Below are positions 9,147 to 48,608 of a DNA stretch of 64,000 nt, one piece after another. Source of the stretch: Escherichia phage AV112. A model generated the notes under the pieces. That model worked only from the letters and a program-made list of their open reading frames with translations. It ran no database searches and was not told the origin of the DNA. The translations under genes and the position numbers were made by a program. Numbering within the stretch: the first letter of the stretch is position 1; each line of letters begins with the position of its first letter. The stretch is taken from sequence record OR352942.1. The stretch is one strand, 5' to 3'.

Positions 9147-10835
9147 TTATGAAACAGTCATTACCGTAAATCGTCCAACTTTGCTCATTTGAAGATGTTG
9201 TCCATAACGTTGAGGGTCATGGTCTCGATGAGAGATAATGAACACATTAGTATTTTGTAAACTTCCAAGAATGGTATCTATAGCCTTAACAGCCTCAGAA
9301 TCGACAGCACCATCAAAAACCTCATCAAGAATCAGAGTGTTGATTTTAACACCAGAGACCTTTTCAGCAATATCTCGCCATGTAAACAACAATGCGATAT
9401 CGATACGTGCCTTTTCACCTTGACTAAATGAAGCATAACTAAAATCTTCACGACCACGTGATTTTATAGATTCATTGAATTCTTCGTCAATAGAAAACAC
9501 GTAATCAGCTTCCATGATTTTAAGATAATAGTTAATCTGCTTGTTGAACAGAGGCACATATTTTTTAATGATAGCACCTTTAATACCAGAATCTTTTAAC
9601 ATATCTGTGATAATACCACGATGGTATTTTTCAAGAACGATATCAGATTTTGTTTTAATGATTTTATCAAGTTCTTTTTGAAGCAAAGCTATCTCATCAG
9701 CATGGTCGATAAATTCCGCCGAGGCTTGTTCTATTGCAGCTTTAACTTTCTTAGCTTTATCAATAGTGGCAATCATTGCTTGTTTCTTGGTACGAATATC
9801 AGATGCAAGGTCCTGTTTAGTCTTAACATTAGCTCTATATTCGTCCACTAGGACACTCAGATTATCTCTGTGGCATGTAAGTTGCTCGAATGAGTGATTA
9901 CATTCGTGAAGCTTATCGGTAATCTTAGAGACAATAGGATCACCCTGGTGCAACTGCGATGCACAAGTAGGACATGTACCACCATCATGATACATCTTAA
10001 TAACTTTGTTATATGAGTCGATTTTAGATTTAATCAAGAATGCTTCTTGTCCGATCTTGTTGAATGCCTCAGTAGGGTCTTCGTCAAGAACGATATTAAG
10101 TAGACGCTCATTAGCTTCTTCAATTTCTGCTTTTAATGAACGAGCTTCTTTGGCTAGGTCGTCATACATATTCTGTAGACGCGCTACATTATCACCAGAT
10201 AATTTCTTTTGTCGTTCGATATTCTCGTTATAAATCTTAATTTGTTGGATAACACCATCTTTCTTGGCATCGAGAACTTGTCCCTGGGAATTAAGTTCTC
10301 GAACTTGAGACTTATTGATTTTATCCATTTCAGCGAGTGTGCCGACTTCTAAAAGGTCTTCGACAAGTTTTCTGCGAGCAGGGGTGCTAAGAGCCATGAA
10401 AGGGGTATACCCTGCCGTCCCAAGCACAACGATTTGTTTAAAAGACGCGTATGACATTCCGATGCTGCGTTCAAATTCTTCTTGGAAGTCACGACTGCTG
10501 GCAGATTCATCAAGACGAACACCGTCAACGGAGATTTCGAAAATATTGGGCTTTTGGCCACGTTTAATGAAGTATTTTTTACCATCGAATTCCATCCAAA
10601 GCTCAACTAAGAGCTCTTTCTTGTTCGTGCTATTAATGATTTGCCCTTTCTTAACATCACGAAATGGTTTACCGAAAAGTCCGAAAGTAATGGCTTCTAA
10701 CATCGTAGATTTGCCACCACCATTTTTACCAGTGATTAATGTCTTTTGGACTTTATCTAATTGGATATCGATAAAATTTTGCCCAACAGACATTATATTT
10801 TTATAACGAACACGATTTAATTTAAATGTTTTCAC
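9147..10835 (-). CDS. 46: Recombination endonuclease subunit gp46 (SbcC/Rad50-like ATPase)
   Basis: 562 aa; N-terminal Walker A GKNGGGKST, a long central coiled coil and a C-terminal ABC signature region; position matches T4 gene 46. Confidence 0.92.
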   Translation of the reverse strand: MKTFKLNRVRYKNIMSVGQNFIDIQLDKVQKTLITGKNGGGKSTMLEAITFGLFGKPFRDVKKGQIINSTNKKELLVELWMEFDGKKYFIKRGQKPNIFEISVDGVRLDESASSRDFQEEFERSIGMSYASFKQIVVLGTAGYTPFMALSTPARRKLVEDLLEVGTLAEMDKINKSQVRELNSQGQVLDAKKDGVIQQIKIYNENIERQKKLSGDNVARLQNMYDDLAKEARSLKAEIEEANERLLNIVLDEDPTEAFNKIGQEAFLIKSKIDSYNKVIKMYHDGGTCPTCASQLHQGDPIVSKITDKLHECNHSFEQLTCHRDNLSVLVDEYRANVKTKQDLASDIRTKKQAMIATIDKAKKVKAAIEQASAEFIDHADEIALLQKELDKIIKTKSDIVLEKYHRGIITDMLKDSGIKGAIIKKYVPLFNKQINYYLKIMEADYVFSIDEEFNESIKSRGREDFSYASFSQGEKARIDIALLFTWRDIAEKVSGVKINTLILDEVFDGAVDSEAVKAIDTILGSLQNTNVFIISHRDHDPQRYGQHLQMSKVGRFTVMTVS

Positions 10836-11697
10836 TTAAATTTTTCCTCATGAATTCAGAAACTAAAGCCTGTAAAGAACTTTGTATAGGATATCCTAAA
10901 TTGACTAAATTTTTAGAAAAAGTCACATATTTAGGTTTGTTCATTTTAACCCATTCATCGTAAAGCATATCAAAATTTTCCCAATGATATCCTTTTCTTC
11001 TAGATTTCAAATGAGTGTCTCTAACTTTAGGATTTTTCCAACTGCGTGAAACTCCAGCCGATAATGATTCTCTATATTCGGCTGTTTTAGATATTTTACG
11101 ACAAGCATCCAAATGTTTTTGTTTATTAATAGGGTCACTAAACCACTTTTGGGTCATAATAGAGACGGTTTCTTTAAATTCCTTTGAACTTGTCATAATT
11201 CTGTGTTTCTTTAAATTTTCCGGATTTTTAAACCATGCTTTTAAAGCTTGACTAATCTTAATTCTATTATCCTGATTGGAATAGTATAATGTCATTTTTA
11301 TAGAATTAACTTTACAAACATTTTCGAATTCTAAAGAATACGCCTCGGCTATATTATTTAGTTCATGCGTTGTACAATTTAAATTAAATCGCCCGGTATA
11401 CATTCTTTGAAGCGCGTTAATCATCTTGTGGTTGCCAGTTTTTGCCAAAATGCTATGTGCAATAAAATGGTTATAATGACTTAAATGACACAAGTTCCAT
11501 TTACATGTTTTAAAATCTGGAAAAATAGATTTTGGTAGTATATGGTGAACCTGAGTCAGTCCTTTTACTTTATTAGTTGAATTAGTTTTTATAAAGTTTA
11601 AATACTCATCAAGTCCTTCCCACGAAGGGAAGGAGGTTTTAAGAATTTTATAAATTTGAGTTTCATAATCAGTCTTCGTCATTATACGCGTCCTCAA
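10822..11697 (-). CDS. HNH homing endonuclease (free-standing, Mob-like) with NUMOD-type DNA-binding repeats
   Basis: HNH core QVHHILPKS...CKWNLCHLSHYNHFIAH, followed by repeated WFKNPE / WFSDP / WKNPK helix motifs. It is inserted between 46 and 47 and overlaps the gp46 start by 14 nt. Confidence 0.8.
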   Translation of the reverse strand: MRTRIMTKTDYETQIYKILKTSFPSWEGLDEYLNFIKTNSTNKVKGLTQVHHILPKSIFPDFKTCKWNLCHLSHYNHFIAHSILAKTGNHKMINALQRMYTGRFNLNCTTHELNNIAEAYSLEFENVCKVNSIKMTLYYSNQDNRIKISQALKAWFKNPENLKKHRIMTSSKEFKETVSIMTQKWFSDPINKQKHLDACRKISKTAEYRESLSAGVSRSWKNPKVRDTHLKSRRKGYHWENFDMLYDEWVKMNKPKYVTFSKNLVNLGYPIQSSLQALVSEFMRKNLSENI

Positions 11698-11926
11698 TAC
11701 ACGCTTCAGCCATTTTAAGAATAGAGCCAGGAGTATCGTTGTCCATTATATTAAAGCTAAATTCAACAGCCCAGTCGGTGCAGACATGAACTGCTTTAAC
11801 TTCATTACCTTCAACGCGTAATGGCTCAATCCAATACTTGATAGTGTTCTCGAATCCATCATCATCTTTAACGTCCATTTCAACTTCAAGCCTGAGTCCA
11901 GCATTGTTAAATTCATCTAAAGTCAT
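11669..11926 (-). CDS. Hypothetical acidic protein
   Basis: 85 aa ORF between gene 47 and the HNH gene. Confidence 0.45.
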   Translation of the reverse strand: MTLDEFNNAGLRLEVEMDVKDDDGFENTIKYWIEPLRVEGNEVKAVHVCTDWAVEFSFNIMDNDTPGSILKMAEACIEDAYNDED

Positions 11927-12942
11927 TGTGTTGCCTCAATATAAAGTTCGTTGGAATATTTGACCAGCGCTTCTCTGTCTTCGTCTGAGATATCTGGAAT
12001 CGCGTCAATATATTCTTTAATGATATCTTGAAGAGATTTAATCTCGATTTCCTGGTCGTCATCAGATTCAACACTGTTATCAACTTTAGAAACCATACGA
12101 AGAGAGTGAACTACTTTTTCAAGTTCAGATTCAAACTTAGTCAACTCTGAATCAATTTCTGATACTATAACACGTACGGCTAGATTAGTATAATCAGAAT
12201 AATTGATTTTGCCTTTAAACGGATAAGTGATTCGTCGATGCCATGTTGTTTCGTTAGGAATAAATTCCATACGTTCAACATCAGTGTCAAATACCCAAAA
12301 TCCGCGCGGGTCGTTCTCATCACCTGCAGTAAGGGTCCATGGTGTCCCAATATATTTGACGTTAGCAGCTTCAGAGATTGTGTGGAAGTGGCCGGACCAG
12401 ACTTGTTTATAGGTCTTTAAGAAATCAGGTTCAAGCCCATGAGACTTCATTCCTTTATAGAAATAAAAACCATTCAGTTCCCAGTGCCCAACACAATACG
12501 CTGCGGAAGAAGTCTTGATGTGCTCTAAGATTTCACCTGTATTTTCTTCGCACATCCATGGAACGATATCAATCAGACATCCGTCAAAATCTACAGTAGT
12601 TGGATGCTCGTAAATAGTAAAGTTTTCAAATTGAGTTAACAATTCAGAAACAGTGTTAGGTGTTATTGTATTCTTAAACGCCATGTCATGGTTTCCTATC
12701 GTGACATGAACGTGAATGCCTGCTTTAGAAATCATATCAACGATTTCACGATTGAATTCCATTGTACGATGTGTTATTGCTTTACGGACGTCAAACCAAT
12801 CACCGTACTGAATCCAAGTTTTAATCCCATGTTTCTTAGAGTATTCAATTGCTTGACGAATACCATCACGTTGAATATCTTGAACCCATGGGTCGTCTTG
12901 TTTGACTCCGATATGGAAGTCGCCTAAGTGCAAAATTTTCAT
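11923..12942 (-). CDS. 47: Recombination endonuclease subunit gp47 (SbcD/Mre11-like)
   Basis: 339 aa; MKILHLGDFH...GNHD phosphoesterase motifs; collinear with recalled T4 gp47. Confidence 0.94.
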   Translation of the reverse strand: MKILHLGDFHIGVKQDDPWVQDIQRDGIRQAIEYSKKHGIKTWIQYGDWFDVRKAITHRTMEFNREIVDMISKAGIHVHVTIGNHDMAFKNTITPNTVSELLTQFENFTIYEHPTTVDFDGCLIDIVPWMCEENTGEILEHIKTSSAAYCVGHWELNGFYFYKGMKSHGLEPDFLKTYKQVWSGHFHTISEAANVKYIGTPWTLTAGDENDPRGFWVFDTDVERMEFIPNETTWHRRITYPFKGKINYSDYTNLAVRVIVSEIDSELTKFESELEKVVHSLRMVSKVDNSVESDDDQEIEIKSLQDIIKEYIDAIPDISDEDREALVKYSNELYIEATQ

Positions 12943-12986
12943 ATTATTTCCTCATTAGTTAATTCATTCTATCATCCGCTTATAAA

Positions 12987-13013
12987 GCAAAAAAAGGAAC
13001 TCCGAAGAGTTCC
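12987..13013 (-). terminator. Rho-independent terminator (minus strand)
   Basis: Plus strand reads aaaaaaa-GGAACTC-cgaa-GAGTTCC: a 7-bp stem with a 4-nt loop, followed by a U-run on the minus-strand transcript. Confidence 0.6.
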
Positions 13014-13186
13014 TATCCACATAGTACACCATACAGAGGCTCATTTGAACTTTTAAATCGAATGGGCTTGTATGTAATAGTTCCTTCGGCTTTAGCTTTA
13101 TCATAAGACTCTTTAAAACGCCTCATTCTTTCTGCTTTGCCTTTACGGATTTTATCGAAATTTTCAGAGGTCAGGTCGTTCGTCAT
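13013..13186 (-). CDS. Small basic protein, 57 aa (below the ORF-track cut-off)
   Basis: Manual translation gives MTNDLTSENFDKIRKGKAERMRRFKESYDKAKAEGTITYKPIRFKSSNEPLYGVLCG; GAGGTG sits 7 nt upstream of the ATG, and the terminator follows directly. Confidence 0.35.
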   Translation of the reverse strand: MTNDLTSENFDKIRKGKAERMRRFKESYDKAKAEGTITYKPIRFKSSNEPLYGVLCG

Positions 13187-13406
13187 GCATAATCACCTCT
13201 CAGAAAATACCTAAATCGATTTCTCTCATCGTTTCCACCATTTCTTAACTTGAAATGAGTCAACCCACACGAGTTGTTTTGGGTCGGCCCTTACAACAGG
13301 TGGACAAATTTCTGTAATAGAACTGTCGTGATATTCCTTTTCAGAGATTTTAACACAAAGAGGACCTCCCAATTTAAGGGTGAACCCTGCGTTCAGCTTA
13401 AGACGT

Positions 13407-13730
13407 TTAAACTTTGTTTGAACTAGCGCCATTAATGATGTCCTCAATAGCCTGACGAGTAGTAACCCACTGGATTTTAATTAACTTGTCATTATATGGT
13501 TGTCGTAGAATATCCCGAGATTTCTTAATAGCATATTCGTAAGCTTCGAAGTTGTTTTGAATTGCTGCTTCTTGAGCATGAGCATAAAGACGGTTTAGTT
13601 CAAAACGATTCTTTTTAAGAATCTTTTCGGATTTTTTACGTGCTTCAGCTTCATTTTTCTTTTGGATTTCTTGTAGCATTTTAGCTACTGCATCTTCTGC
13701 TTCTTTATTTTCAATAATCTCGGTAGTCAT
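13407..13730 (-). CDS. Hypothetical protein
   Basis: 107 aa ORF in the interval where T4 carries alpha-gt and 47.1; no glycosyltransferase-sized ORF is present here. Confidence 0.5.
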   Translation of the reverse strand: MTTEIIENKEAEDAVAKMLQEIQKKNEAEARKKSEKILKKNRFELNRLYAHAQEAAIQNNFEAYEYAIKKSRDILRQPYNDKLIKIQWVTTRQAIEDIINGASSNKV

Positions 13731-13731
13731 A

Positions 13732-14025
13732 TTATCTCATTAAATTAAAATAAAAACGTCCATCCTCTTCAATACGGAACTCATACTCAACCGGAGTCCC
13801 ATTTATCGAAAATGACACGTCATGTGGGTTCAAAGGGTCGATGTCAAAATTAATTTTAAATTCACGACCCAACAGTTTTACCAAATAAGGGATTGCTTCG
13901 TCAAAAGGTTCTTCTAAGTAGTTAGAGATGTCAATTGTCATCCTCATATAAAAAATCCAAACTAGGCGAATCGCTAACAACTTCCTTCTTTTCAGCCCCA
14001 GGAGCTTTATAAGCGGATTCTTCAT
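13732..14025 (-). CDS. Hypothetical protein (start uncertain)
   Basis: 97 aa ORF whose 5' part overlaps the 3' end of gene 55; internal Met codons at 13945-13947 and 13939-13941 are alternative starts. Confidence 0.4.
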
Positions 14026-14488
14026 AATGCGTCATTTTATCGTAGATGTCTTGAATAAACGTTTCATCTACCAACGCTACCATATCATCGTCATGACTGT
14101 CGTAGACGTTATGAACGAAGTAACTATATTTCTTTGCAACTTCCTTACGTTCTTTTTTGATACGTTGGACAAAAGCATTAAAACAAGCTCGAGTTATGTA
14201 TGCATGTGGGTTATTGTACTTAGTTTCGTCGAAATTATGAAGTCCCTTAATAGAGGCTTCAATCCCATCTGCAATCATCTCCTGCTTCCAAGACTGGGTA
14301 TATCCTGAAAAGTTGAAACGTTTGGACAGGCCTTCGGCGATAAGCATAATTGCTAAACCGATGGTATCATTCTGACGAATAATTTTGTTTGGGTCTTTAT
14401 TATTTAAGAGCTCCTTTTTCCACTCGATTATAGCGGCGAGAAGCTCTTTATTATTCACATAGTTATTTTTAGGTTTTTGTTCAGTCAT
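13931..14488 (-). CDS. 55: Late-transcription sigma factor gp55
   Basis: 185 aa; near-identical to recalled T4 gp55 over NYVNNKELL...[25 protein letters not shown]. Confidence 0.94.
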
Positions 14489-17262: not shown

Positions 17263-17733
17263 TTAATCATGTTTCCACACCCCGTCGGTATTTGTCCAAA
17301 GTCGCTGATTATCTGATCCTCGCCACAGTTTTTTGGTCGGAAGATTTTTCTCATACTTCCCATCAATAATAACATCAACATATTTAAGCATTTCTAGTTG
17401 TTTAATATCTTCAAACTTATATCCTGTCCACAACCAAATGCTTTTATTGGGATAAAGTTTTTTTACTGTTTGAACAATGCAATGAACAACATCTTGGTTA
17501 TCAGGATAGAGAGGGTCTCCTCCAGTTATAGTTAATCCTTCTATATAATCATTATTCAAACATTCAATTAATTGTTCCAGCGTTTCACCGGTGAATGGGA
17601 TACCATTTCTAGCGTTCCATGTTGATTTATTATAACACCCCTCGCATTTATGCAAACAACCTGTAACGAAAAGAACGACCCTGCAACCGGGGCCATTCAC
17701 AAAATCGCAAGGATAAAATCTATCATAATTCAT
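17263..17733 (-). CDS. nrdG: Anaerobic ribonucleotide reductase activating protein NrdG (radical SAM)
   Basis: 156 aa with the CxxxCxxC cluster CLHKCEGC; immediately downstream of nrdD. Confidence 0.92.
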   Translation of the reverse strand: MNYDRFYPCDFVNGPGCRVVLFVTGCLHKCEGCYNKSTWNARNGIPFTGETLEQLIECLNNDYIEGLTITGGDPLYPDNQDVVHCIVQTVKKLYPNKSIWLWTGYKFEDIKQLEMLKYVDVIIDGKYEKNLPTKKLWRGSDNQRLWTNTDGVWKHD

Positions 17734-19547
17734 TGGTGTTTAACCCTATGCATGATTTCTTTATTTTTGCCGAGATTAAATCCGCGTTCGTTCGGATTTC
17801 CAAGATAACCGCATGTTCTTCTTATTGTGTTCATCTTTTTAGGATCAGTTTCTCCGCAAACTGAACAAACAAATCCGGTTTCAGTAGGAGTCATTTCATG
17901 AGTACTTCCACATGTAAAACATTTATCTACTGGCATATTAACACCAAAATAATCTAAATGTTGTGCAGCATAATCCCATACAGCCTCAAGACCTTTTAGG
18001 TTATTTTTCATATCAGGAAGTTCAACATAAGAAATGTGACCACCAGTCGCAATGAAATGATATGGCGCTTCACGAGAAATCTTTTCAAACGGAGTAATAT
18101 TTTCTTCTACTGAAACATGGAAACTATTAGTGTACCAGCCTTTATCAGTAACATCTTTTACACTTCCATATTTTTCTGTATCAAGTTTACAGAAGCGATA
18201 ACAAAGGTTTTCAGCAGGAGTAGAATACAAGCTAAAAGCAAAACCGGTTCTTTCAGTCCACTGCTTAAGACGAGCATTCATTTTAGTTAAAATTTCTTGC
18301 CCAATATCACGTCCGGCAAGAATATTCAATTCGTGAATACCAATGTATCCTAAAGACACTGAACTTCTACCGTTTTTAAATAACTCAATTATATCGTCAT
18401 CAGGTTTAAGACGAACCCCGAATGCACCTTCTTGGTAAAGAATAGGAGCAACAGTAGCTTTAACTCCTTTTAAGGAACTAATTCTACACATCAAAGCTTC
18501 AAAACACAAATCCATTCGCTCATTGAACAATTCGATAAATTTCTGTTCATTGAACTGTGTTCCAATATAAGAATCTAACGCAATGCGAGGAAGATTCAGT
18601 GTTACAACACCGAGATTATTACGTCCATCAAGAATTTCATTACCAGTCGAATCTTTCCATACGCTCAAGAAACTACGGCAACCCATTGGAGAAACAGGAA
18701 TAGACGAACCAGTGATAGCTTTATTGTTCTTAACTGAAATAATATCAGGATACATTCTTTTGCTTGCGCATTCTAAAGCAAGCTGTTTAATATCATAGTT
18801 CGGGTCGTCTTTATAAAGATTAACACCCTCTTCAACGAACATAACAAGTTTAGGGAAAATAGGAGTTATTCCATCACGACCAAGGCCTTTAATACGATTT
18901 TTCAGAATTGCTTTCTGAATCATTCGTTCAGTCCAGTCAGTTCCAGTACCAAATGTAATTGTTACAAAAGGCGTTTGTCCGTTTGAACTAAAGAGAGTAT
19001 TTACTTCGTATTCATACGCTTGGAATGCATCATATACGTCTTTTTCTGTTTTAGATTGAGCATAATTCAACGCATCAGCGATTTGCCATTTTTCTGCATC
19101 TTCAATATGTTTTGCATAGGTGCGTTTAACATAAGGAGAAAGAACTTTATCGACATTCGCAAATGTAGTTCCACCATACTGATGCGAAGCAACCTGTGCG
19201 GTAATTTGTGCCATAATTGCAGTAGCAACACCAATCGATTTAGGCGTTTCAATTTGAGCATTGCCTAATTTAAATCCATTCTCAAGCATTCCTTTTAAAT
19301 CTACTAAACAGCAATTAGTAAAAGGCAATGATATACTGTAATCTAAATCATGAAAATGAATTAATCCAACATTATGTGCATTTACAATATGACTTGGAAG
19401 AATACGACAAGCGATATGTTTAGAAACAATACCGGCCATTAAATCTCTTTTTGTTGGAAAGACACGAGAATCTTTGTTGGCGTTTTCGGTATTTAATTCT
19501 TTATCTTTATTTGAAATAAAATTTAAAACATCTTTCTCTAAAGACAT
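17730..19547 (-). CDS. nrdD: Anaerobic ribonucleoside-triphosphate reductase NrdD (glycyl radical enzyme)
   Basis: 605 aa with the C-terminal glycyl-radical motif RRTCGYLGNP and a Zn-ribbon CxxC pair; one uninterrupted ORF, so no intron. Confidence 0.95.
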   Translation of the reverse strand: MSLEKDVLNFISNKDKELNTENANKDSRVFPTKRDLMAGIVSKHIACRILPSHIVNAHNVGLIHFHDLDYSISLPFTNCCLVDLKGMLENGFKLGNAQIETPKSIGVATAIMAQITAQVASHQYGGTTFANVDKVLSPYVKRTYAKHIEDAEKWQIADALNYAQSKTEKDVYDAFQAYEYEVNTLFSSNGQTPFVTITFGTGTDWTERMIQKAILKNRIKGLGRDGITPIFPKLVMFVEEGVNLYKDDPNYDIKQLALECASKRMYPDIISVKNNKAITGSSIPVSPMGCRSFLSVWKDSTGNEILDGRNNLGVVTLNLPRIALDSYIGTQFNEQKFIELFNERMDLCFEALMCRISSLKGVKATVAPILYQEGAFGVRLKPDDDIIELFKNGRSSVSLGYIGIHELNILAGRDIGQEILTKMNARLKQWTERTGFAFSLYSTPAENLCYRFCKLDTEKYGSVKDVTDKGWYTNSFHVSVEENITPFEKISREAPYHFIATGGHISYVELPDMKNNLKGLEAVWDYAAQHLDYFGVNMPVDKCFTCGSTHEMTPTETGFVCSVCGETDPKKMNTIRRTCGYLGNPNERGFNLGKNKEIMHRVKHQ

Positions 19548-20359
19548 AATTCTAATTTATCCTTTTGAAATTCTTCGTCTAAATATGGGTTCCAACCCAT
19601 TTTAAACCTTTTGATGAAATTATCAATTCTAAATTTCGGTAAGTTTAAATCCGCAAAAATAGATGATTTACTTTTAAAATCTGGACCTAAATAATCATAT
19701 AAAATTTCTGCGTATTTTAACCATAATATACAAGTACCAGATTTAATTGCGTTCGGAGTTTTCCAAGGTTTTACACCATACATCGGATTTCCACTTCCTT
19801 TATGCCTGATAGAAGATGAAATTCCAATTTTAATTTTAGCTTCCTTTGTATGCGAAAATCCACGATGCGGATTTTCTTTCCAGTATTTTTTAGAAGCTTC
19901 TGATATTTTCTTTCTGGCTAAATTAGTATGATGCTTTCCATAAAATCCATGATTTTTGCCTTTATTACGATTTCTTTTAATCATGGTTATTGATTGCTTT
20001 TCTCTAGTTTCTTTAGAAGGAGAAATACCATATGTCGTAAATTTGCCATCAGCATATGCTAAATTAAAATACTCTTTATTCCATACATCTTTTTCTATAT
20101 TCTTTTGAAATTCAGCTTCAATGCTAGTTATTTGTTCATCTCCGACTAATTGAAAATATAATATTTCAACTTTCGGCGTTTCTTTCAATAAGGCTTTTTG
20201 AAATTCGGAAGATGACGAAGACGAATAATAAAATTTACCATTTTTATCAATAATATTCGTTCCATCAAAAGTGCAATTGGTTTTACTTCCAATGTAATAA
20301 TATGGTGGGGTTTTAGCATTAATTCTATTAATAAATGATAGTTTATATACTACATTCAT
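19538..20359 (-). CDS. GIY-YIG homing endonuclease (free-standing, Seg-like) with NUMOD3 repeats
   Basis: N-terminal VVYKLSFINRINAKTPPYYYIGSKTN (GIY-YIG core); C-terminal repeated KNHGFYGKHHT / ENPHRGFSHTKEAK / GSGNPMYGVKPW helices. It sits between 49 and nrdD and overlaps both. Confidence 0.75.
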   Translation of the reverse strand: MNVVYKLSFINRINAKTPPYYYIGSKTNCTFDGTNIIDKNGKFYYSSSSSSEFQKALLKETPKVEILYFQLVGDEQITSIEAEFQKNIEKDVWNKEYFNLAYADGKFTTYGISPSKETREKQSITMIKRNRNKGKNHGFYGKHHTNLARKKISEASKKYWKENPHRGFSHTKEAKIKIGISSSIRHKGSGNPMYGVKPWKTPNAIKSGTCILWLKYAEILYDYLGPDFKSKSSIFADLNLPKFRIDNFIKRFKMGWNPYLDEEFQKDKLELCL

Positions 20360-20829
20360 TTTAAACTCTTTCTAAGCTGCTTTTTGAATGAAGCTATTAA
20401 TTGTGTTTTGGTATCAGATTCATTATATTCAAATCCTCTTTGAAGCATCTCGGCCATCATTTCCTCTTTACCTAGTCTTGAGAACTCTTTAGTTTTGTCT
20501 GGAACAAAATTAGGATGGATATTATTATCAGAATAATCTTGTTTCAAATAAGCGAGAAGAGCTTCAAGCCATTCGAGGTAGTCGACATCACGTCCTTTAA
20601 GACCGGAACGGTTGAACTTATGCTTCATTTGACCTTCTGCTGCGTTGCACAGATTACAGAGTAATCCACGAACTCTACCGGCTTTTGGCCCGTTTAATTC
20701 ATGGTCGTGGTCAAGATGGTTACCTTGAACATCAGGGTCTAATTCACGGTGGCAAATAGGACACTTACCGTTCTGTGCATCATAAAATTTTTGTTTTTCT
20801 TCTTTATATTTTGCGCCTGATAATAACAT
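20356..20829 (-). CDS. 49: Endonuclease VII (Holliday-junction resolvase) gp49
   Basis: 157 aa; near-identical to recalled T4 endo VII, including CPICHREL...HLDHDHELNGPKAG...CNLCN. Confidence 0.94.
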   Translation of the reverse strand: MLLSGAKYKEEKQKFYDAQNGKCPICHRELDPDVQGNHLDHDHELNGPKAGRVRGLLCNLCNAAEGQMKHKFNRSGLKGRDVDYLEWLEALLAYLKQDYSDNNIHPNFVPDKTKEFSRLGKEEMMAEMLQRGFEYNESDTKTQLIASFKKQLRKSLK

Positions 20830-33230: not shown

Positions 33231-33709
33231 TCAACAATCACAATTTCTAGTTTAGTGGAATACGTATCTAAAATCTCTTCGATGACATCCCAGTTTCCAC
33301 CACCGATACCTGCACCAATTCTTGGCATATAAATTACAGGCTTTGTTATCTTATTCTTTCCGAATTCATTTAATTCTATTATACAATTCATTAAAGCATA
33401 GTACTCAAAATTAGGTCCAGGCTCAAACTGTGTATAAAGATTAAAGCAATAAGCTTTATGGGTCTTAAAATATTTTTCATAAACCGAATAAGTCCCGAGT
33501 TTAGACTCGTCTCCGAATTCGGTTTGAAGTTTATCGGCTTCTAAAATTTTTGGATAAGCCTTTGCTAATTGTCCTGCCACACCAGCGCCCATTGTATGAA
33601 AACAATTACACCCATGAGCAATATTATTACCTTTAGAAAACAGGGCGACAATATCGCCCTTGATATAGTTTTTAATCACTTGCTGCAAGTCCTCTAGTAT
33701 AAGAGTCAA
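33212..33709 (-). CDS. Macro-domain protein (ADP-ribose binding/processing)
   Basis: Gly-rich motifs NIAHGCNCFHTMGAGVAGQLAK and IGAGIGGGNW are characteristic of macro domains. Confidence 0.5.
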   Translation of the reverse strand: MTLILEDLQQVIKNYIKGDIVALFSKGNNIAHGCNCFHTMGAGVAGQLAKAYPKILEADKLQTEFGDESKLGTYSVYEKYFKTHKAYCFNLYTQFEPGPNFEYYALMNCIIELNEFGKNKITKPVIYMPRIGAGIGGGNWDVIEEILDTYSTKLEIVIVDWEPLL

Positions 33710-48511: not shown

Positions 48512-48608
48512 ATTATTAACAAAGGCTCTCAAGCAAGAACCCTTGATGATAGAGGGTATTAATCAGTGCGATATGAGTTAATAATAACAAATAATTCTTA
48601 AAGCATAT

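Follow-up and report, generated by a model that had tools for sequence, protein, structure and literature searches.

T4-like phages are rich in homing endonuclease genes. Here we describe an intact open reading frame (ORF) that stands directly upstream of the recombination gene 46 in Escherichia phage AV112 (OR352942.1), within a stretch of 64,000 nucleotides (nt) that was analyzed at its full length and is called the window below. By its sequence, the ORF product falls within the Mob family of T-even phages, whose members are free-standing HNH homing endonucleases, and it represents an uncharacterized member of an already known kind of endonuclease. We consider it likely that the ORF is a free-standing endonuclease gene of this family that spreads by homing near the 5' end of gene 46. 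A preliminary description of the window, made from its letters alone, had already called the gene a free-standing HNH homing endonuclease, and this identification is borne out by homology to the T4 Mob proteins, by the intact state of the copies in different phages, and by a presence/absence polymorphism among relatives.

The 4.2 kilobases around the ORF are 100% identical to Escherichia phage AV113 (OR352943.1), a Mosigvirus of the RB69-like group of T4 relatives, and in all comparisons below AV113 stands for the window sequence. All genes around the ORF lie on the minus strand, in the order gene 47, gene 46.2, ORF, and gene 46. The longest form of the ORF, 10822..11697, which opens with TTG at 11697, is the one that had been described previously. 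Its intactness and strand are upheld, and its start is revised: translation most likely begins at ATG 11682, yielding a product of 286 amino acids (aa), because this ATG is used by GenBank, because GAGG lies 9 nt upstream of it, and because the same ATG and first seven codons open gene 46.1 in phages lacking the ORF. The gene is annotated as 'hypothetical protein' in AV113 (WPK34797.1), and in sister phages the identical gene goes under the names 'MobD-like homing endonuclease', 'HNH endonuclease', and 'mobile endonuclease'.

Relationship of the ORF product to the Mob family

The ORF product matches PHROG 655 ('homing endonuclease') over nearly its full length, with an expectation value (E) of 7e-32, as well as PHROG 12434 ('HNH endonuclease'; E=2.7e-12). 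Searches with tblastn related it to mobD of T4 and RB phages (E=4e-13, 29% identity, 82% of the query covered), to mobC (PST mobC; E=2e-18, 36% over the N-terminal 59%), and to mobE of RB43 (E=9e-9). The Mob proteins of T4 consist of an HNH domain and a distinct C-terminal DNA-binding region, and the targets of MobA and MobE are nicked (PMC2988022). MobE is an active homing endonuclease (PMC2790892), and within the His-Me finger superfamily MobA-E have been assigned to its main HNH group (PMC5714182).

An HNH-type motif, HH-x15-N-x8-H-x3-H, is present in the product, and when 60 homologues are aligned, invariance is confined to Y27, H46, H47, I48, L49, P50, S52, N63, H72, and H76. In an AlphaFold model (predicted local distance difference test score, pLDDT, 93.5) the region of H46, H47, N63, H72, and H76 is distributed over a strand at residues 43-47, a strand at 64-68, and a helix at 69-80. 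This predicted beta-beta-alpha unit has a pLDDT of ~97, and a separate model of residues 1-105 has the same arrangement. As modeled, the residue layout is that of an HNH beta-beta-alpha-metal core, in agreement with the HNH core recognized in the preliminary description. In such a core, a beta-hairpin and a helix bear a catalytic His that closes the first strand, a structural Asn, and, on the helix, a His or Asn that binds the metal. Two of the 60 homologues reach PF01844 (E ~0.005), and scans of the ORF protein and of its relatives from phages T6 and Melville with Pfam and NCBIfam returned chance-level matches only, for example to GerD. The label 'HNH' is therefore applied to the ORF product on the basis of family homology, the motif, and the predicted fold, and not on that of a curated model.

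The C-terminal 180 residues are all helical in the AlphaFold model (pLDDT >90) and include three internal repeats, R1 (residues 137-166), R2 (167-196), and R3 (200-229). The similarity between R1 and R2 lies above that of 2000 out of 2000 shuffles, and for R2 and R3 p is ~0.001. The repeats are real, and their identity as NUMOD modules is plausible. Of the three NUMOD-like DNA-binding helices proposed earlier, then, the helical repeats stand, being significant, and the NUMOD assignment found no match, either in Pfam or with a model of our own. The Pfam NUMOD models, including NUMOD3 (PF07460), had no match at E<=1 in the ORF protein, and a custom NUMOD3 hidden Markov model made from 17 homologue segments scored it at 2.4 bits, against a maximum of 5.3 among 500 shuffles, which is noise. 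Pfam NUMOD3 is present in 23 of the 60 homologues, the ORF protein being without it. The best local alignment of the ORF protein to a NUMOD3-positive endonuclease encoded elsewhere in the window (19538-20359) pairs RIKISQALKAWFKNPEN with RKKISEASKKYWKENPH and, although suggestive, is not significant (BLASTP E=0.41).

Replacement of gene 46.1

Comparison with phage G2285, in which the site is empty, gave the junctions of the inserted DNA to the exact base. In the endonuclease-less Mosigviruses PhAPEC2, G2285, WFK, and PTE-Eco05, the place of the ORF is occupied by gene 46.1 (DUF5487, 79 aa). An 826-base pair (bp) cassette stands in place of 215 bp of this gene, from codon 8 to its end (codons 8-79), and the start of the ORF retains the 14-nt overlap of 46.1 with the end of gene 46.2. 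This overlap and the inherited ATG imply that the endonuclease uses the 46.1 translation start and its coupling to 46.2. As read from the two sites, the ORF is an in-frame fusion that replaces the body of 46.1 and not a plain intergenic insertion. The earlier view of an insertion into the intergenic site between genes 46 and 47 was thus right about the place, between genes 47/46.2 and 46, and has to be amended with regard to the loss of most of gene 46.1. Two further points of that description, the overlap of the ORF with the start of gene 46 (14 nt) and the presence of only 46.1 and 46.2 at this position in T4, agree with what we found.

A short repeat occurs at both junctions, as TATGAAA in 46.1 and as (A/G)TGAAA where gene 46 starts. 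The fraction of guanine plus cytosine is 0.28-0.31 in the ORF and cassette versus 0.36-0.44 in the flanks. Relative to G2285, the sole change in gene 46 is that of its start codon from ATG to GTG; the start is GTG in the phages that carry the endonuclease gene (hereafter carriers) and ATG in endonuclease-less Mosigviruses. A GTG start of gene 46 was considered as a carrier-specific trait and rejected, since T4 and STML-198 have GTG too.

Distribution and recent spread among Mosigviruses

The gene is found in nine of ~170 Mosigvirus records, which represent eight phages: AV113, phiEC1, PNJ-9, G2469, F2, SQ17, 172859UKE1, and pEK20. All are Mosigviruses and have the gene at the same site, with 99.4-100% nucleotide identity. 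Elsewhere 46.1 is present instead, and about 155-160 further Mosigvirus-like records have an endonuclease-less gene 46 allele. The species mar005p1 holds both states, with the gene in G2469 and 172859UKE1 and the endonuclease-less gene 46 allele in mar005P1 records. A comparison of this junction across related phages had been suggested as a check on mobility in the preliminary description, and both the sporadic presence of the gene and the occurrence of the two states within one species argue that it is mobile.

All eight copies are intact, with zero stop codons, and the variation among them amounts to 12 sites (8 synonymous and 4 non-synonymous). The ratio of non-synonymous to synonymous divergence (dN/dS) is ~0.27 against the Melville copy and ~0.27-0.4 between lineages, with dS saturated, and therefore indicates purifying selection on the protein.

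Nucleotide diversity was computed among the eight carriers, region by region. The cassette has a value of 0.0030 and nt 1-100 of gene 46 one of 0.0025; the values are 0.030 in gene 46.2, 0.040 in the 3' end of gene 47 plus 46.2, and 0.019 in nt 100-1100 of gene 46. Diversity in the cassette is thus 6-13 times below that of the flanks, and the carrier backbones are otherwise 2-4% diverged. Flank haplotypes are shuffled up to ~8-20 nt from the left junction and ATG and, on the right side, from ~nt 96 of gene 46. Taken together, the shuffled flanks and the diversity trough indicate that a single cassette recently entered several diverged backbones. The tract that always travels with the cassette extends rightward, into gene 46. 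An endonuclease-linked haplotype in the left flank was also considered and was rejected, since the shuffling there reaches ~8-20 nt of the ATG.

Within this left flank, at window positions 11690-11691 (8-9 nt before the ORF ATG), GAGGACGCG is found in five of the eight carriers; GAGGATGC(G/A) occupies the site in the other three carriers and in four of the four endonuclease-less phages examined. With the C variant, the ribosome-binding site could be enclosed by a small stem of 4 bp (GCGT…ACGC).

Relatives at the same site in other lineages

Full-length relatives of the ORF lie immediately before gene 46 in other genera as well. Phage T6 has a full-length relative (YP_010067209) between 46.1 and 46, with 42% aa identity in a codon alignment and ~45% by tblastn. 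In Salmonella phage Melville and its relatives (Gelderlandvirus; YP_009615533, 'MobD-like homing endonuclease') a gene with 56% aa identity, and 67% identity to the ORF at the DNA level, is situated between genes 47 and 46, and a relative with 54% aa identity has the same position in a metagenomic contig (L016; P0003). The 14-nt overlap with gene 46 recurs in Melville and P0003. The T2 copy of the T6-type gene (L018 1188-2040) is split into ORFs of 204 aa and 85 aa and is therefore decaying, a pattern consistent with decay after fixation; RB68 gave two pieces in tblastn. In the lineages examined, gene 46 is the sole constant neighbor of the endonuclease clade, directly downstream, and the upstream neighbor varies. 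The distant homologue P0004 adjoins a DNA polymerase gene instead. A scan of IMG/VR with the clade alignment confirmed zero relatives.

The T6 homologue is itself chimeric (L004 3807-3842, compared with T4 L006 4968-4985 and 5153-5170). The first 18 nt of its ORF and the region upstream equal the T4 gene 46 start (GTGAAGAATTTTAAACTT), and the next 18 nt equal codons 7-12 of 46.1 (DINDEF; 17 of 18 nt identical), after which the endonuclease begins; the real gene 46 of T6 has a new start, ATGAAATCA. The T6 chimera and the Mosigvirus fusion together indicate that in two lineages the endonuclease ORF took its 5' end from a resident gene. In the Gelderlandviruses the interval between genes 47 and 46 occurs in three states, a 40-aa 46.1-like remnant in S16 (L019 781-903), a direct overlap of 47 and 46 in STML-198 (L020 781-784), and the endonuclease in Melville, and across genera this locus is a hotspot of change.

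A probable footprint in the 5' end of gene 46

Free-standing endonucleases always bring about co-inheritance of the DNA between their gene and the break (PMC2988022). The first ~66 nt of gene 46 look like such a co-conversion footprint, and by the same rule it points to a homing site within ~nt 30-70 of the gene. A patch at nt 34-66 is common to all Mosigvirus carriers and differs from the common allele at 12 of 33 positions, six of these differences being synonymous. The endonuclease-linked allele reads Y-(K/S)-N-I-M-S-V-G-Q (Y-K-N-I-M-S-V-G-Q in AV113) and the common endonuclease-less allele Y-Q-N-I-M-S-V-G-G. The same contrast is met independently in Gelderlandvirus, where Melville, with the endonuclease, and S16 and STML-198, without it, show ~26 differences in the first 64 nt of gene 46 versus ~1.5% beyond.

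The affinities of gene 46 change along these sequences. Nucleotides 67-120 group by genus (AV113 and PhAPEC2, 98%; Melville and S16, 96%; T6 and T4, 100%). Nucleotides 31-66 group by endonuclease lineage: AV113 is 81% identical to T6 and 83% to T4 versus 67% to PhAPEC2, and Melville is 72% identical to AV113 versus 56% to S16, PhAPEC2 being nearest to S16 and STML-198. In nt 1-30, Melville gene 46 is 93% identical to T6 and 67% to S16. In both genera the tract ends immediately before ATTGATAT(C/T)CAA.

A second patch of this kind lies in the 3' part of gene 46, where ~140 nt (window ~9208-9347, the Walker B and His-loop region) are hyper-diverged and exist as two alleles. A second endonuclease gene, 717 bp long and on the opposite strand, is present between 45.2 and 46 in F2, G2469, and G2285 (L002 674-1390, L011 4174-4890, and L013 189-905), and each of these phages has allele B. 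Allele B also occurs in SQ17, pEK20, and WFK, which lack the 717-bp gene, and AV113 has allele A and no second gene. The 3' patch repeats the pattern met at the 5' end of gene 46.

Promoters and expression

A T4-type middle-promoter-like motif inside the ORF has its first base 134 nt upstream of the gene 46 start, and in the Melville copy this distance is identical. In T4, PhAPEC2, and G2285, the 1300 nt that precede gene 46 contain no MotA-type motif, and in T6 there is neither a MotA box at the corresponding position nor an overlap with gene 46. The core pattern of MotA box and -10 element (TGCTTYA N11-13 TANNNT) occurs 11 times in the window versus 2.0±1.4 expected, eight times on the gene-sense strand. 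The cassette also supplies the GAGGA upstream of the gene 46 GTG. It is known that promoters serving genes downstream lie within segG, segA, segE, mobB, and mobC, and they are thought to favor retention of the endonuclease (PMC2988022). By analogy, the MotA-type middle promoter motif embedded in the cassette probably drives gene 46. We infer, rather than observe, this function, because the motif overlaps conserved codons. Other candidate middle promoters on the minus strand include those at 843-868, 2149-2173, 9661-9685, 12966-12989, 20422-20447, 33373-33398, and 48581-48605.

A scan of 10500-13300 for sigma-70 promoters and terminators stayed at chance level, except for a terminator upstream of gene 47, and the nearest upstream T4-type middle promoter motif is that before gene 47, just past this terminator. 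With no sigma-70 promoter standing out and the nearest middle promoter before gene 47, the cassette therefore lacks a promoter of its own, as do mobA, mobC, mobD, and mobE of T4 (PMC2988022).

Proposed mechanism and alternatives

According to the mechanism that we propose, the protein would bind, in a mixed infection, to a site that lies within the 5' end of gene 46 or close to it (~nt 30-70) on endonuclease-less genomes, using its three helical repeats and C-terminal domain, and the N-terminal HNH domain would nick or cut the DNA at the bound site. T4-type recombination-dependent repair would then copy the cassette, along with the adjacent segment of gene 46, from the carrier genome. The variant patch in gene 46 would render the carrier refractory to cutting, and the MotA-type promoter in the 3' part of the cassette would drive gene 46, thereby favoring retention of the cassette.

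Several results weigh against spread by homing, or against the endonuclease assignment on which it depends. Pfam and NCBIfam scans found no HNH model at E<=1 for the ORF protein or for its T6 and Melville relatives. A single-sequence search of the PDB found no nuclease relative, the sole weak match being to the unrelated interferon-gamma (E=0.24), and a PDB search with a 60-sequence profile gave zero matches. The diversity trough, taken alone, fits driven homing or passive recombination alike, and other genes of the window, for example at 13600-14400, are near-identical among carriers too. The gene 46 patch is present without the endonuclease in five Mosigviruses (G2285, WFK, WFL6982, ESCO47, and PTE-Eco05), and T4 has the endonuclease-type allele without the gene, so that the link between patch and gene is not a strict one, and the patch could simply be a mosaic segment of the ordinary kind. 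Finally, no paper describing an endonuclease gene at the 46/47 locus turned up in a search of the literature. The phages that bear the patch and lack the gene could be refractory survivors or former hosts of the endonuclease. The patch was also considered as a strict part of the cassette, a candidate that was rejected, since five phages combine the patch with an intact 46.1.

Some of these observations would suit a decaying or inactive relic, catalytically dead or without targets and passed among Mosigviruses by ordinary homologous recombination. A patch allele without the gene, as in the five Mosigviruses and T4, is what one would expect late in a homing cycle, the split T2 copy shows that the clade does decay, and the curated HNH models do not recognize the protein. 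We nevertheless regard a relic as unlikely. Eight of the eight copies are intact, their catalytic residues are conserved, and most of the variation is synonymous; targets are also plentiful, because about 155-160 Mosigvirus records have the endonuclease-less gene 46 allele. The diversity trough is sharp, being confined to the cassette and ~100 nt of gene 46, and this speaks for spread that is recent and active. The failure of the curated models, along with the lack of a significant structural match to solved HNH nucleases and the prediction that more than half of the protein is helical repeat or DNA-binding-like, would also be accounted for if the product were a sequence-specific DNA-binding protein with a fortuitous or degenerate HNH-like motif. 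This we find hardly credible, since, among 60 diverse homologues, no block other than that of the motif residues is invariant, since these residues lie on a beta-beta-alpha unit, and since the product is homologous to MobC, MobD, and MobE, the last being an active endonuclease (PMC2790892).

The promoter motif raises another alternative, that a host-beneficial role is what mainly maintains the protein, for example in providing a middle promoter and ribosome-binding site for gene 46 or in excluding competing phages, whose DNA it would cut with no efficient homing. The motif at 134 nt is kept in the Melville copy and is absent in endonuclease-less phages, the cassette provides GAGGA before the gene 46 GTG, and other T4 endonuclease genes are known to contain promoters that favor their retention (PMC2988022). 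T4 and most Mosigviruses, however, express gene 46 without a cassette, and the motif overlaps conserved codons (D-M/L-L-Y-x-E-W-V/I-K-M), so that its conservation could be a by-product of constraint on the protein. Such a benefit would in any case come on top of a homing function, not instead of it, and as the main reason for the presence of the gene it seems to us quite improbable. Homing by a Mob-family endonuclease is thus the reading that we prefer. A wider version of it, somewhat more doubtful than probable in our judgment, is that of an uncharacterized homing system targeting the 5' end of gene 46 that crossed among Tequatrovirus, Mosigvirus, and Gelderlandvirus, importing ~66 nt of gene 46 each time, with a MotA-dependent promoter that would put gene 46 under the control of the cassette. 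If this were true, a selfish element would have rewired the expression of an essential recombination gene, and its target, gene 46, would encode the very Rad50-like subunit that processes the breaks on which homing depends.

Comparison with known systems

The ORF product shares with T4 MobD, MobC, and MobE a homologous N-terminal HNH domain (with MobD, similarity covers 82% of the protein length) and the succession of an N-terminal HNH domain and a C-terminal DNA-binding region. Like the ORF, the mob genes are promoter-less, oriented like their neighbors, overlap the upstream gene, occur sporadically, and lie beside a conserved DNA-metabolism gene (PMC2988022). Unlike them, the ORF is fused at its N terminus to seven codons of the gene that it replaced, and it is only 29-37% identical to T4 MobD, MobC, and MobE. 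Its locus, 46.2|46, is also distinct from those of the T4 Mob genes (nrdC.11/mobD.1, nrdG/nrdD, and nrdB/nrdA), and its target is therefore presumably different. The homologues at the same locus (T6, the split T2 copy, Melville, and P0003) are closer, with 42-56% aa identity and a position directly before gene 46, but belong to other genera and have other upstream neighbors. Melville shares the embedded MotA-box motif of the ORF, and T6, unlike the ORF locus, retains an intact 46.1.

I-HmuI (PDB 1U3E), with NUMOD-type helices and a C-terminal helix-turn-helix, resembles the ORF product in its general design, in which an extended, helical DNA-binding region comes after a small HNH domain. It differs in being intron-encoded and in belonging to another His-Me finger group (HNH_3, PMC5714182), and no sequence or structure match between I-HmuI and the ORF product was obtained in PDB sequence, profile, and structure comparisons. 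The Pfam I-HmuI_NUMOD-like model is matched by two of the 60 homologues. The segG gene next to gene 32 of T4 parallels the ORF in its co-conversion footprint in a neighboring gene and in the promoter for a downstream gene inside the endonuclease ORF (PMC2988022). SegG, however, is a GIY-YIG enzyme, and its distant cut site and its marker exclusion have been shown experimentally, both of which we infer for the ORF.

The locus offers a clean natural example of an endonuclease gene: both an empty and a filled site are at hand, the junctions are known exactly, and members of one endonuclease clade are found at this site in four lineages. In two genera, the gene 46 segment that was imported stops at one and the same position, which gives a concrete predicted homing site at nt ~30-70. 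The AV113 annotation can now be corrected from 'hypothetical protein'. Carriers and non-carriers differ in the first 22 codons and the start codon of gene 46, a difference relevant to the comparison and engineering of recombination genes in Mosigvirus and to the tracking of recombination in therapeutic phages.

Features of the locus and additional observations

The coordinates of the features discussed above are given in Table 1.

Table 1. Features of the gene 47-46 region in the window, from upstream to downstream on the minus strand
Feature	Position	Strand	Basis or remark
Gene 47	11923-12942	-	Metallophos
Gene 46.2, upstream neighbor of the ORF	11669-11926	-	Pfam T4_Y03C, E=3.6e-44
Homing endonuclease ORF, 286 aa + stop	10822..11682	-	GenBank start; homology; intact in 8 phages
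Segment inherited from 46.1: ATG and first seven codons (MTKTDYE)	11661..11682	-	Same in PhAPEC2, G2285, WFK, PTE-Eco05
Foreign cassette, 826 bp	10835..11660	-	G2285 comparison; low GC
Predicted HNH (beta-beta-alpha-metal) core, residues 43-80, H46 H47 N63 H72 H76	11443..11556	-	
Three helical repeats, x-S-x7-W-(F/K)-x-(N/D)-P-x5-H, presumed DNA-binding modules	10996..11274	-	
C-terminal small helical domain, residues 232-278, possibly helix-turn-helix	10849..10989	-	
T4-type middle-promoter-like motif inside the ORF: MotA box TATGCTTTA, 12 nt, TAAAAT	10943..10969	-	
Overlap of ORF 3' end (…S-E-N-I-stop) and gene 46 start, 14 nt	10822..10835	-	
Mosaic patch, gene 46 nt 31-66 (codons 11-22), candidate homing/immunity site	10770..10805	-	
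Gene 46, SMC/Rad50-like (Rad50/SbcC-like ATPase)	9147-10835	-	Downstream neighbor

A second free-standing homing endonuclease gene, encoding 273 aa, is present in the window at 19538-20359 on the minus strand, between nrdD (17730-19547) and gene 49, which encodes endonuclease VII (20356-20829). Its product matches PHROG 7504 and 314 ('homing endonuclease') as well as Pfam NUMOD3 (E=6e-7), and has a GIY-YIG-looking N terminus (VYKLSF…YYYIGSK). In the 5' part of gene 47 (window 12400-12999), the identity of PNJ-9 and pEK20 to AV113 is only 65-90%, versus 97-99% in the neighboring DNA, and this region constitutes another short mosaic segment of the 46/47 operon.

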